This document shows, one piece after another, positions 18,759 to 31,013 of a DNA stretch of 31,013 nt (positions within the stretch are counted from its first letter, which is position 1; each line of letters opens with the position of its first letter). Source of the DNA: Polyangia bacterium (GTDB taxonomy: Bacteria; Myxococcota_A; Polyangia; Palsa-1104; JAEUJZ01); NCBI GenBank assembly GCA_038231615.1, contig JBBRLA010000011.1, positions 1 to 31,013 on the forward strand, in the 5' to 3' direction. The translations under genes were made by a program, and so were the position numbers. Under the pieces are notes generated by a model that did no database searches, was not told the DNA's origin, and was given only the letters and a program-made list of their open reading frames with translations.

Positions 18759-20076
18759 CTACGGGAAGCGCCCCGTCGCGGCGAGCAGGTCCACGCGGAT
18801 CTGGGTGAGATCGTCCACTGCCACCACCGCCGCGGTATCGGCGTCGCGGGCGCGGCGTTCGGCGTCGATCACTTCCAGGTTGGTGCTGGCGCCGGTGCGG
18901 TAACTCAGCGTAGCGATGTCCACTGCCCGATGGGCCAGCTCCGTGGCTTGGGTGGCGCCAGTCACCGCCCGCTCGGCCTTGCGCAGGGTCGCATAGCCTA
19001 CGTCGATGTCCACATGGGCCTGGCGCAGGCCCGCGGACAGGTTGACCTCTGCCTCGGTGGTCAGGGCGCGTCGTTCATGGAGCAGGCCGTAGCGCAGGCC
19101 CCCGTCGTAGAGCGGCACGATCAGAGCGAGCTGGATCTGCCACGAGAACGCCGGCTGCACAAGGGTCGAGGGAGATTGATACATCGGCGCGAAGGCCAAG
19201 GTCAGGGTGGGCAGAAAGTCGGTGTAGCTGTCGCGCGTCACATGCTGCCGGGCGCGGTGCGACAGGTCCAGGCCGACCAGGTCAGGTCGCAATTTCGGGG
19301 CATCGATCAGCGCGGAATCCCGGGGCGGCAGCTCCGGCAGGTCGGCTTCGCCGGCCACGTCATAGGGATGCTCCTCGCCCAGCAACACGCCGAGCGCCGC
19401 CTGGGCGCGCAGAAGGCCCGCCTGTGCCGATTCGACGCGCCCCTCATCGCTGCGCAGCTCCTGTTCGGCGCGCACCTCGTCGAGCTTGCTGCCGATGCCC
19501 TGGGCGAAGCGCTTGCGGGTGACTTCGTAGTGGGCCTGGGCCGTCTCCCGCGCCCGTTCGTTCAGTTCGACGATGCGCCGCTGCGCCAGGATTGCCAGGT
19601 AGGCGTGACCCACCGCCACCGCCACTTGCCGCCGGACGGTCTCGCGGGAGACGGCGGTGATGCGGGCGTCGGCCCTGACATGGGCCCACCGCGCCCAGGC
19701 GGGCGGCGCCAGCAGCGGCACGGCCAGGGTCAGGTTGGCGCTCAGCTGGTCCGCGGCCACGAAGGTCTGGTCGCCGATCTTGCGGTCGCCGTCGAGCCGG
19801 GTGTAGAGCCCGTTGGCAGACAGGGTCGGCAGCGCCGCGGCGCGCACCTGCTCGACCAGCGCCGCCGCCCGCCGCACCTCCGCGGCGGCGACCAGGGCGC
19901 TCGGGTTCTTCGCCAGGGCCCGATCCAGGGCCTCGCGCAGGCTGACCTTCGGCGGCGCCTCCTCGCCGTCAGGGGCTTGCGCCGTAGCCGGGGCCTGCGC
20001 CGTAGCCGGAATCTGCGCCGCCGCGATCTGGATCAGGAGCAGCGTGGCCATCCCGATAAGAATCATCCACTGCTGC

Positions 20077-20084
<8 letters not shown>
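18759..20084 (-). CDS. Outer-membrane efflux protein (TolC/OprM-like outer-membrane factor) of the RND system.
   Basis: Signal peptide MILIGMATLLLIQIAAAQ, so the true start is probably ATG 20066. Characteristic paired coiled-coil / beta-barrel repeats. It is last in the operon, after the membrane-fusion and RND genes. Confidence 0.85.
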
Positions 20085-28238: not shown

Positions 28239-28829
28239 ATGGGCATACCGACCTTCGGGGCGTGGCTGATCGTTCCCTGCGCCCTTTCGGCCTGCTACAA
28301 CCCGGACTACGCCGCCGCCCACTACGCCTGCGACGATCATACCCCCTGCCCCACGGGGTTCTCGTGCAACGGCGGCAGGTGCGCGAACCCCAGCCTGGCC
28401 AGCGGCGGGTGCGCCGGGGCGAACGGCTCGCAGGTGGGCAACGACATCCACGCCTGCCCGGGGCTCTTCAACGCCGCGGCGGCGAAGAACCTGTGCCAGA
28501 CCGGTTATGATATCTGCGCCGACGGCACTGGAGTCAGCGCCGACGCCTGCGGTACCTCGGGCTTCTTCGCCACCCGCGCCACCGCCTATCGGGTCGATGA
28601 TGACCCTACCGACGATTCCTGCAAGAAAGACGGCGACCACACCAATCTCATGCTGGTCGGCTGCGGGAAGCTGAACGGCAGCACCCTCTCGTTAAAAAAG
28701 CCCTGCGGCTCCCTTTCCACCGCCCTGGATTGCGTCACCGACAACCAGTGGGTGTGCGCGGCAGGCATCGACGCCGCGACCAACAGGAAGGAACCCACCA
28801 GCGGGGTGCTCTGCTGCCGGGTCAAGTGA
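28239..28829 (+). CDS. Cys-rich secreted lipoprotein (196 aa, about 20 Cys). Function unknown.
   Basis: Hydrophobic leader ending in lipobox ALSAC. Cys spacing patterns CPTGFSCNGGRC, CAGANG, CPGLF, CQTGYDIC suggest a disulfide-knotted extracellular domain. An AT-rich promoter-like stretch lies upstream. Confidence 0.55.
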   Translation: MGIPTFGAWLIVPCALSACYNPDYAAAHYACDDHTPCPTGFSCNGGRCANPSLASGGCAGANGSQVGNDIHACPGLFNAAAAKNLCQTGYDICADGTGVSADACGTSGFFATRATAYRVDDDPTDDSCKKDGDHTNLMLVGCGKLNGSTLSLKKPCGSLSTALDCVTDNQWVCAAGIDAATNRKEPTSGVLCCRVK

Positions 28830-28892: not shown

Positions 28893-30455
28893 TTACCCTT
28901 CCTTTGTCTCGAGGCCGGTGCGGTCCAGGATCGTCGCCACTGTCATGTCGCTGATCACGTTGGTGGCCGCCCGGCAACGTCCGATGATCCAGTCCACCGG
29001 CAGGATCAGCGGCAGGGCGGTCGCCGCCACCGCGTCAGGCAGCCGCGCCGCCGCCAGCACCAGCGGCAGGGTGATGAGCCCCGCCTCGGGCACTCCGGCA
29101 ATGCCGATCCCCGCCATCACCGACGCTGCCGCCACCGCGAGCTGCTGCGGGAACCCCAGGTGGAACCCGAACGCCTGCGACACGAACACCGCCGCGCTGG
29201 CTTCATACAGGATGATCCCGTCGTGGTTCAAATTGGTCCCGACGCATGCCGCCAGCCGCGCCGACCCCTGCGACACCCCCATGCGCTCGGTCAGGCACTT
29301 CAGCGTCACCGGCAGAGTCGCCAGGCTGCTGCCCGCGGACAGGGCAAAGAGGATGGCGTCGGCGGCCCTGGCGAAGAAACGCCGCGGGCTCTCTTTCGCC
29401 ACGAGGCGCAGGAGCAGGCTGTAATAGACGCAGACATGGATGGCGAGCCCGATGAGGATGGTCAGCAGAAACGATCCCAGCACCAGGAACACGCGCAGGC
29501 CGGTGCGCTCCACCACCTGCACGATCACCCCGAAGACCGCGAAGGGGATGATCTTGATCAGCCATTCGAGGATCTGGCTGAACACCCGCAGCCCCGCGCC
29601 CACCGCCCGCTCGATGACATCCACGCCCTCGGCCTCGGCGCCGCCGCGGTCCTTGAGCTTGCGCAGGGACAACCCCAGAAGGATCGAGAGCAGCACCACG
29701 GTGATGATGTTGTTCTTGGCGAAGGGCTCGATCAGGCTTTCGGGGATGTAGCCGGCCAGGTTCTTCAGTGGGTTCAGGGTGGGGACGACGACGGAGGGCG
29801 CATGGCCGGGAGCGGGCGCGACGGGGCCGGCTGTGGCTGTCGCTGGACCCGCTGTGGCTGTCGCTGGACCCGCTGTGGCTGTCGCTTCACCCGCTGTGGC
29901 TGTCGCCGGACCCGCTGTGGCCGTCGCTGGACCCGCTGTGGCTGTCGCTGGACCGACAGCTACCGGGCCGACCTGTGCGCTGAGTATTGGCAGTTGCCCC
30001 TGCCACCTCTCGCCGCCGCGCAGGGTGTTGGCTACCAGCAGGCCGATGGAGAGGGCCACCACCGCGTTGACCGAGCTGAGAAGCACCAGGCGCAGGCCCT
30101 TCCTGGCCGGGATGCGGGTGCGCAGGAAGGCATCGATCACCGCGAAGAGCAAAAGCGGCGTCGCCAGCGCCTTCAGCAGCCGGATGAGGAGCAGCCCGGC
30201 CTCGCCCAGCATGGCGGCCTTGCCGTCGGCGTCGTGCTCGGGATGCCCGGTGCCCCAGGCGCGCAAGGCCAGGCCAAAGCCCACGCCCAGTGCCACGCCC
30301 AAAAGGATGCGCTGGTACAGGGGCAGGGGCTTCTTCCCCCGGCCCGGGCCCGGGCCCGGGCCGGGTCCCGGCCCCTCGGCGCCGAGGCCGTTCCTGGATG
30401 CGGAGGGCCCCGGCCCTTCGGCGCCCCTCATGGCCTCAGCGGCGACGCCGCTCAT
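28893..30455 (-). CDS. Dicarboxylate/amino-acid:cation symporter (DAACS / sodium:dicarboxylate symporter family). It has a low-complexity N-terminal extension and an internal (GPATATA)6 repeat insertion.
   Basis: Family hallmarks: PLYQRILLGVALGVGFGLAL (TM1), the NMDGT-like region AACVGTNLNHDGIILYEASAAVFVSQAF, and the C-terminal ATNVISDMTVATILDR. The start is set at ATG 30455, which overlaps the pdxH stop (ATGA). The track ORF continues to 30806, but that part is Pro/Arg junk overlapping pdxH. Confidence 0.85.
   Translation of the reverse strand: MSGVAAEAMRGAEGPGPSASRNGLGAEGPGPGPGPGPGRGKKPLPLYQRILLGVALGVGFGLALRAWGTGHPEHDADGKAAMLGEAGLLLIRLLKALATPLLLFAVIDAFLRTRIPARKGLRLVLLSSVNAVVALSIGLLVANTLRGGERWQGQLPILSAQVGPVAVGPATATAGPATATAGPATATAGEATATAGPATATAGPATATAGPVAPAPGHAPSVVVPTLNPLKNLAGYIPESLIEPFAKNNIITVVLLSILLGLSLRKLKDRGGAEAEGVDVIERAVGAGLRVFSQILEWLIKIIPFAVFGVIVQVVERTGLRVFLVLGSFLLTILIGLAIHVCVYYSLLLRLVAKESPRRFFARAADAILFALSAGSSLATLPVTLKCLTERMGVSQGSARLAACVGTNLNHDGIILYEASAAVFVSQAFGFHLGFPQQLAVAAASVMAGIGIAGVPEAGLITLPLVLAAARLPDAVAATALPLILPVDWIIGRCRAATNVISDMTVATILDRTGLETKEG
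29829..29955. repeat. Six near-perfect tandem copies of a 21-bp unit (cgctgtggctgtcgctggacc), in frame inside the transporter gene.
   Basis: Direct reading. It encodes GPATATA x6 on the minus strand, with single-base variants in copies 3-5 (E for P; a silent change). Confidence 0.9.
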
Positions 30456-31013
30456 GGGTAAAGGTAACCCAACGTCCAGCCGGCCCCCTGGCGCACGTAC
30501 AGGTCCCGGTCGTGGAGGCGGTGGGCCTGCTCTTGCCAGAACTCGATGCGCCGGGGATCGAGGCGGTAGCCGCCCCAAAAGGGCGGGCGGGGCACCGTCT
30601 GGCCCGGGTATCGGGCCTCGATTTCGTGGAAGCGCCGCAAGAGTTCGTCCCGGGAGGAGAGCGGCTCGCTCTGCCGCGACGCCCACGCCCCGATCTGACT
30701 TATGCGCGGCCGGGTGGCGAAGTAGGCGTCGGACTCCTCGGGGCTGACGCGGACCACGGGGCCTTCGGCGCGGACCTGCGCACCCAGGGAGGGCCAGTGG
30801 AAGCACAGGGCGGCCAGGCCAGAGCCGTCCAGTTCGGCGGCCTTGCGGCTGCCATAGTTAGTATAAAAGACCAGGCCCCGCTCGTCAAAGCCCTTGAGCA
30901 GCACCATGCGCACCGCGGGCCGTCCCTGGTCATCCACGGTGGCCAGGGACATGGCGGTGGGGAGTTTTTCGCCCTCGCCCGCGCGAGACAGCAGATCGTT
31001 AAAGCGGCGGACC
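30452..31013 (-). CDS. pdxH: Pyridoxamine 5'-phosphate oxidase. It is 3'-complete; the 5' end lies beyond the window.
   Basis: LATVDDQGRPAVRMVLLKGFDERGLVFYTNYGSRKAAEL ... RIEFWQEQAHRLHDRDLYVR ... matches PdxH along its length. The frame stays open upstream of Met 30952 to the window end. The stop is at 30452. Confidence 0.9.
   Translation of the reverse strand, partial: VRRFNDLLSRAGEGEKLPTAMSLATVDDQGRPAVRMVLLKGFDERGLVFYTNYGSRKAAELDGSGLAALCFHWPSLGAQVRAEGPVVRVSPEESDAYFATRPRISQIGAWASRQSEPLSSRDELLRRFHEIEARYPGQTVPRPPFWGGYRLDPRRIEFWQEQAHRLHDRDLYVRQGAGWTLGYLYP

Follow-up and report, generated by a model that had tools for sequence, protein, structure and literature searches.

An in-frame 21-bp tandem repeat in the 3-4 loop of an SDF-family transporter gene from a Polyangia bacterium

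How does the gene for a membrane transporter come to carry six head-to-tail copies of a 21-bp sequence in the middle of its reading frame, and does the protein segment that they encode serve any purpose? The question is raised by a contig of 31,013 nucleotides from a Polyangia bacterium (NCBI GenBank assembly GCA_038231615.1, contig JBBRLA010000011.1), which was analysed at its full length and is called the window below. The six units encode GPATATA x6 in the 3-4 loop, the segment between transmembrane helices (TM) 3 and 4, of a transporter of the SDF/DAACS family. An original prediction, made from the letters of the sequence, had left it open whether the array is a contingency or spacer element or simply a tolerated expansion, and the evidence favors the last of these options. 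With a probability of roughly 0.7, the array is a tolerated, slippage-generated, lineage-specific in-frame coding minisatellite in a disordered periplasmic tether.

The array, its gene and its place in the protein

The locus is laid out as follows.

28893..30455, minus strand: SDF/DAACS-family transporter gene, 520 amino acids (Pfam PF00375, PDB sequence matches, Foldseek)
29829..29954, minus strand: six 21-bp units encoding GPATATA x6, in codon register, consensus GGTCCAGCGACAGCCACAGCG; transporter residues 168-209
29955..29975, minus strand: upstream flank QVGPVAV, in the register of unit -1, CAGGTCGGCCCGGTAGCTGTC; no repeat copy; its final GP-V-A motif resembles the downstream flank
29808..29828, minus strand: downstream flank GPVAPAP, in the register of unit +6, GGCCCCGTCGCGCCCGCTCCC; it starts GGCCCC, partly matching the unit start GGTCCA

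A single array stands out when the window is scanned with Tandem Repeats Finder (TRF), at positions 29830..29954; it has a period of 21 and 6.0 copies, adjacent copies match at 92% without indels, and the score is 222. The runner-up reaches 70, and the highest score in 50 dinucleotide-preserving shuffles of the window was 66, so that 222 for the 21-bp array is far beyond chance. Read on the minus strand, the sequence runs ...ILSAQVGPVAV, then the array, then GPVAPAPGHAPSVVVPTLNPLKN..., and both the in-frame GPATATA x6 and these flanks are present as they had originally been quoted. The array had been placed at 29829-29955, of which the start is correct and the end is one base too long (29954 in codon register). 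It had also been called perfect, with three point differences between its units. Neither description holds, since 5 of the 126 bases depart from the consensus; two of the six units equal it and the other four are altered. Three of the alterations are synonymous (ACA>ACG in unit 2, CCA>CCG in unit 3 and the final GCG>GCC in unit 6), and the fourth changes two neighbouring bases of unit 4 (CCA>GAA, Pro>Glu), so that this unit reads GEATATA and the others GPATATA. Each of the four variants is private to one unit. The units match the consensus at 96%, the longest tract of perfect 21-bp periodicity is 57 bp, and each 21-bp unit contains an (Ala-Thr)2 sub-repeat of its own.

The array is a coding tandem repeat: it has at least three contiguous near-identical units, the unit length is a multiple of three, and it shares its frame with the SDF match to either side. 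As had been recognised from the outset, this is no CRISPR array, the units being contiguous, without spacers and coding. Open reading frames (ORFs) also run across the array on the plus strand, in frames that read AVAVAGP and LWLSLDP. No Pfam match was found for these plus-strand ORFs, and they were set aside as antisense artefacts of high GC. The alternative frames have 100% GC at their "third" position because Ala, Pro, Thr and Gly codons have C or G at position 2.

Judged from its sequence and its modelled structure, the host is an intact SDF transporter with the GltPh fold. Pfam PF00375 (SDF) matches residues 46-512 over profile positions 1-386 of 387 (2.2e-79, 267.7 bits against a cut-off of 27.9), HMMER aligns the sequence to PDB chains of GltPh, GltTk, EAAT and ASCT, and all 40 invariant alignment columns are kept. 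An AlphaFold2 model, with a mean predicted local distance difference test score (pLDDT) of 82 and a predicted template modelling score (pTM) of 0.82, leads Foldseek to GltPh, GltTk, EAAT and ASCT with a probability of 1.0 and target-normalised template modelling scores of up to 0.83. The original assignment to a DAACS, glutamate/dicarboxylate-type symporter is thereby supported as to SDF/DAACS identity. At the level of the subfamily, the NCBIfam cut-offs are not reached (DctA, 122.9 versus 513 bits; GltP, 76.9 versus 638; SstT, 55.3 versus 308), and scores so far below them place the transporter in an uncharacterised SDF clade. The PDB alignment of TM8 identifies Arg495 as the conserved Arg and sets Gly492 opposite the Asp of ...ILDMAR...; the TM7 motif is NHDGI. 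In amino-acid transporters of the SDF family, the TM8 Asp binds the alpha-amino group and the TM8 Arg binds the carboxylate, and the presence of Gly492 in place of Asp hints at a substrate other than an alpha-amino acid. The most plausible start of the gene is the ATG at 30455, and the exact 520-residue product is on the NCBI record.

HMMER alignments to solved structures place the end of TM3 at query residues 145-149 and the start of TM4 at residues 231-234, which correspond to GltPh 132-135. Residues 168-209 lie between the two, so the array is in the 3-4 loop; this is the position that had been expected from mapping onto a GltPh-type structure, and the AlphaFold2 model agrees with it. In the model, TM3 spans residues 117-145, two short helices follow up to residue 162, and the next helix begins at residue 229, with no secondary structure over residues 163-228. 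The pLDDT falls below 50 only in the N-terminal tail and over residues 170-214, that is, the array and a few flanking residues. The array is therefore predicted by the model to add 42 disordered residues in the middle of the loop. The conserved loop anchors beside it are intact, GGERWQGQ... after TM3 and ...PTLNPLKNLAGY before TM4.

The loop has been described as joining "anchored TM4 and ambulatory TM3" (PMC8490817). The 3-4 loop of GltPh and the EAATs resembles the array-bearing loop in running from TM3 of the transport domain to TM4 of the scaffold on the external face and in being long, proline-containing and flexible; it differs in length, with about 35 residues in the aligned solved prokaryotic homologue versus 97 here. 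The insertion found in eukaryotic EAAT and ASCT proteins lies between TM4b and TM4c, not at the point where the array is located.

The orientation of the loop can be deduced from the GltPh topology together with the positive-inside rule, given a strongly basic 2-3 loop (LRTRIPARKG) and an N-terminal tail with RGKK at its end; on these grounds the 3-4 loop should face outward. Genes for an OEP/TolC-like protein, an AcrB-type pump and an MFP membrane-fusion protein are also found in the window, so an outer membrane is present and "outward" means the periplasm. The array would thus be carried in a periplasmic loop of an inner-membrane transporter, and would not be exposed at the cell surface.

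Relatives, codon usage and the origin of the array

Loop length was compared by measuring the loop segment from anchor to anchor (query residues 140-236) in the 120 best homologues, which are 48-68% identical to the transporter. The segment varies from 45 to 123 residues and has 45-60 residues in 97 of the 120, and in the six closest relatives (64-68% identity) it has 45-52. The array-bearing transporter has 97, or 55 once the 42 repeat residues are subtracted. No GPATATA array was found in any of these 120 nearest homologues, across which the loop sequence is unconserved at the place where the array sits. Long loops do occur in other lineages, where they are A/P/S/T-rich and have no DNA periodicity. 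A TRF analysis of 26 homologue loci revealed no comparable loop array, with weak two-copy signals only (L019/L021 and L035), and small significant duplications are present in only three other homologue loops.

The most informative comparison involves two homologues with 88% identity, P0008 and P0014. Their membrane core is nearly unchanged, and almost all of their indels fall in the 3-4 loop. The loop of P0014 contains a 21-bp tandem duplication (GSNAPAA x2, the copies identical at 19 of 21 positions) of a sequence that is present once in P0008. A sister lineage has thus undergone a 21-bp duplication of its own, which indicates that in-frame tandem duplication is a recurrent and tolerated route to a longer 3-4 loop. 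A different kind of insertion in the same loop characterises a subclade of the homologues (P0009, P0012, P0017, P0019, P0020, P0022, P0030, P0038, P0041, P0042, P0062 and P0081), which share a conserved segment of about 25 residues, ...DVDEDQERVEDLIATLVKKGVLTKKEA..., that is not of low complexity. It looks helical and charged, so the 3-4 loop has gained structured inserts too.

The array was also sought more widely. A degenerate DNA pattern for at least 1.7 GPATATA units gave 13 matches in 185,579 species-representative genomes, none of them in an SDF gene; each consists of some two, and no more than about three, loosely repeated units, and the GC-rich surroundings are unrelated. The idea that GPATATA is a shared element was rejected on this result. 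Metagenome contigs scanned with the transporter protein yielded best relatives 55-74% identical (the 74% over a fragment), none with the array. In the collections searched, the closest relative of the transporter is about 68% identical and the closest non-self AcrB 75%; the contig of that AcrB relative has no SDF gene. The exact 520-residue transporter is itself filed in a 90%-identity cluster under an unrelated 50-residue representative (MTLTKQQLQLIK...), a database artefact that hides it from homology searches.

The codon usage of the array bears on its origin. The GC content at third codon positions (GC3) is 0.48 in the array versus 0.90 in the remainder of the transporter gene, and the codons of the array are scarce in 13 other genes of the window, with ACA at 3.4% of Thr codons, CCA at 7.3% of Pro codons and GGT at 6.8% of Gly codons. 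Seven-codon windows as A/T-ending as the unit make up 2.4% of those elsewhere, and there is 1 among 473 in the remainder of the transporter gene. Six consensus units should contain 24 A/T-ending codons, of which 22 are left, and two of the three synonymous unit changes are A>G. The simplest reading of this pattern is that a single atypical seven-codon founder was amplified, too recently for drift to have carried it to the genomic codon norm, and the array would accordingly be young relative to the family. Expansion by slippage or tandem duplication, as originally proposed, fits these observations when it is regarded as a lineage-specific event, given the absence of the array from the 120 homologues, the similarity of its units and their non-genomic codon usage.

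The favored course of events would begin with the duplication of a 21-bp stretch of the TM3-TM4 loop coding sequence with atypical A/T-ending codons. The likeness between GGCCCC at the downstream flank and GGTCCA at the start of the unit is a possible candidate for the microhomology behind this founding duplication. Replication slippage or unequal recombination would then have raised the number of copies to six; we infer slippage as the mechanism. The outcome would be 42 extra disordered residues in the unconserved centre of a tether that leads from TM3, in the mobile transport domain, to TM4, in the static scaffold, and more slack in the unconserved middle of the loop should not hold back the elevator movement. 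Because the loop tolerates large length changes across the family and the anchors are untouched, the expansion is most likely neutral or nearly so, without a dedicated function.

Two points weigh against this reading. All three single-base changes between units are synonymous and at the third position, a possible sign that purifying selection acts on the peptide; the number is three, and two of the changes follow the GC3 bias of the genome. An intact 3-4 loop is essential to GltPh, where many point substitutions alter activity (Compton 2010; Mulligan & Mindell 2013, as reported in PMC8490817), and by analogy the addition of 42 residues could affect transport kinetics.

The array belongs to a documented class, that of in-frame repeats that create disordered regions. 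The amino-acid tandem repeats (aaTRs) of Borgs create new disordered regions, with a preference for membrane and extracellular proteins (PMC9879509), and prokaryotic low-complexity regions form through the proliferation of short repeats (PMC10120016). The array shares with them in-frame units, a disordered product, the enrichment in membrane or extracellular proteins, a P/T-rich composition, partially repeat-like flanks and a recent independent origin. It differs from Borg aaTRs in being on a chromosomal bacterial contig, in being imperfect at the nucleotide level and in having for company in the window a few short repeats rather than a pervasive set. No description of such a repeat in this host protein or loop turned up in literature searches that were made for unrelated purposes, none of which was aimed at this specific case.

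Alternative explanations

The array might instead be an adaptive variable-number repeat, in which frequent copy-number change tunes the length of the tether, elevator dynamics and transport rate, so that it serves as a contingency or tuning element. Slippage would still be feasible, with units 96% identical to the consensus and perfectly periodic tracts of up to 57 bp, and the 3-4 loop of GltPh is functionally important (PMC8490817). Some bacterial intragenic repeats are indeed polymorphic, in correlation with strain origin (PMC2639597). The 26 intragenic repeats of Legionella pneumophila (PMC2639597) are like the array in having near-identical head-to-tail units that are multiples of three within an ORF and a presumed origin in slippage. 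Only 7 of these 26 are polymorphic between strains (PMC2639597), however, and near-identical units alone therefore do not make copy-number variation "likely", as the original prediction had supposed. A variable-number tandem repeat (VNTR) is defined by polymorphism between strains, and the array is at most a candidate for one; it also differs from the Legionella repeats in being carried by the loop of an inner-membrane transporter instead of a surface or virulence protein. Each of the four variants is found in one unit alone, which indicates that since their origin no variant unit has been copied or homogenised; the array is interrupted by these variants and shows no sign of current hypermutability.

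The phase-variable surface genes of Neisseria and Haemophilus resemble the array in their slippage-prone in-gene repeats. The array departs from such contingency loci in its unit divisible by three, its interrupted tract and a product that is not surface exposed. A 21-bp unit in the middle of an ORF keeps the frame at any copy number and offers no on/off switch, and the loop appears to be periplasmic in a bacterium that encodes OEP, AcrB and MFP proteins. The unit length excludes a classical contingency switch, which the periplasmic location also makes unlikely, and the contingency role once suggested for the array is not upheld on either count. As a whole, an adaptive repeat of this kind is unlikely.

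It is also quite unlikely, if conceivable, that selection keeps the repeat as a functional peptide module, namely a Pro/Thr/Ala-rich periplasmic spacer, such as an O-glycosylation or protease-resistant linker, or a partner docking segment. Such P/T/S-rich amino-acid repeats were considered potential sites of post-translational modification in the Borg study (PMC9879509). Many homologue loops are likewise A/P/S/T-rich, the three single-base unit differences leave the peptide unchanged, and a similar (APATAQ)2.7 repeat follows the OEP signal peptide on the same contig. Against such a module, the repeat is absent from all 120 homologues and has only unrelated counterparts, none in an SDF gene, among the 13 matches of the genome scan; in addition, one central unit has undergone Pro>Glu and the loop sequence is unconserved across the family. 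The OmpA hinge and the linkers of TonB and of E2 lipoyl domains are Ala/Pro-rich flexible linkers of envelope proteins and, like the array, form extended periplasmic or interdomain segments that are A/P/T-rich, of low complexity and variable in length; those linkers join folded domains, and their presence is conserved, whereas the array is a private expansion in the loop of a transmembrane protein.

The copy number could, in addition, be an artefact, the array having been collapsed or expanded by a short-read assembler. Tandem repeats are known to cause assembly errors (PMC9879509), and the window is the entire 31,013-bp NCBI contig. Against this, the variants in units 2, 3, 4 and 6 limit perfect periodicity to 57 bp, which is below usual read lengths and large assembly k-mers and should thus leave a unique path through the array, and neither the reading frame nor the conserved motifs beside the array are disrupted. 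An artefact is accordingly very unlikely.

Finally, it is highly improbable that the 22 rare A/T-ending codons act at the level of the mRNA by slowing ribosomes between TM3 and TM4 and aiding co-translational membrane insertion: the low GC3 of the array (0.48 versus 0.90) and the use of codons at 3-7% of their synonymous families would suit such a role, but no homologue needs a codon cluster of this kind, two of the three synonymous changes already lead toward common codons, and the amplification of a founder unit is a simpler account of the codon pattern.

Neighbouring features and the meaning of the expansion

Two further features lie within and upstream of the transporter gene.

30337..30375, minus strand: (GP)n repeat, 6-bp unit x6.5 (CCCGGG-type), in the N-terminal cytoplasmic tail of the transporter (TRF, translation)
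30452..31012, minus strand: pyridoxamine-5'-phosphate oxidase (pdxH-like) gene (Pfam PNPOx_N 5e-25, PNP_phzG_C 1e-16)

The (GP)n repeat is translated, since no other start codon occurs in frame from residue 9 to TM1. The pLDDT is low over residues 11-28, in the region of this tail, and homologues typically have only about 14 residues ahead of TM1. A duplicated GAEGPGP motif lies just upstream of the repeat. Three further short in-frame repeats are thus found on the contig when this one is counted, all in predicted disordered parts of envelope-associated proteins. An 18-bp repeat of 2.7 copies, (APATAQ)n, occupies 19972..20020 on the minus strand in the OEP gene (18759..20084), where it immediately follows the signal peptide predicted for the TolC-like protein and forms another periplasmic low-complexity expansion rich in A/P/T. 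A 9-bp repeat of four copies (CGGAGGATG) at 132..167 encodes HSPHPPHPPHPP, or (HPP)3-4, at the N-terminus of a minus-strand ORF that runs from 188 off the start of the contig; the segment after it looks like a transmembrane helix, and the product is predicted to be membrane-anchored. If (GPATATA)n were a selectable length-tuning element, acting through tether slack and turnover, or a Thr-rich periplasmic site for modification or docking, then the other in-frame A/P/T/G-rich repeats in envelope proteins of the contig (OEP, transporter tail) would represent a lineage-wide strategy; this is a very doubtful proposition.

The pdxH-like gene upstream ends in a stop codon that overlaps the ATG of the transporter gene as ATGA (30452..30455). 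The two genes are probably co-transcribed, and the overlap suggests translational coupling of a PNP (pyridoxine/pyridoxamine 5'-phosphate) oxidase with the SDF transporter. Convergent with the transporter gene is a cysteine-rich ORF at 28239..28829 on the plus strand (196 amino acids, about 20 Cys, no Pfam match), whose product is possibly secreted. Near the other end of the window, a 981-residue ORF at 337..3282 on the plus strand matches the shoulder domain of the eukaryotic major vault protein (MVP) (PF11978, 1e-20) and the vault repeat (PF17795, 3e-7), and encodes a bacterial MVP-like protein.

Taken as a tolerated expansion, the array is one more case in which in-frame repetition has given rise to a disordered segment in a tolerant loop, and its importance is small. 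Together with the duplication in P0014, it exemplifies a process that likely generates the variable 3-4 loops of this transporter clade, most of them degenerate in sequence and A/P/S/T-rich, before point mutation erases the periodicity. As a natural variant with 42 additional residues, it also provides a handle on the amount of slack that an elevator transporter may accept in its TM3-TM4 tether.

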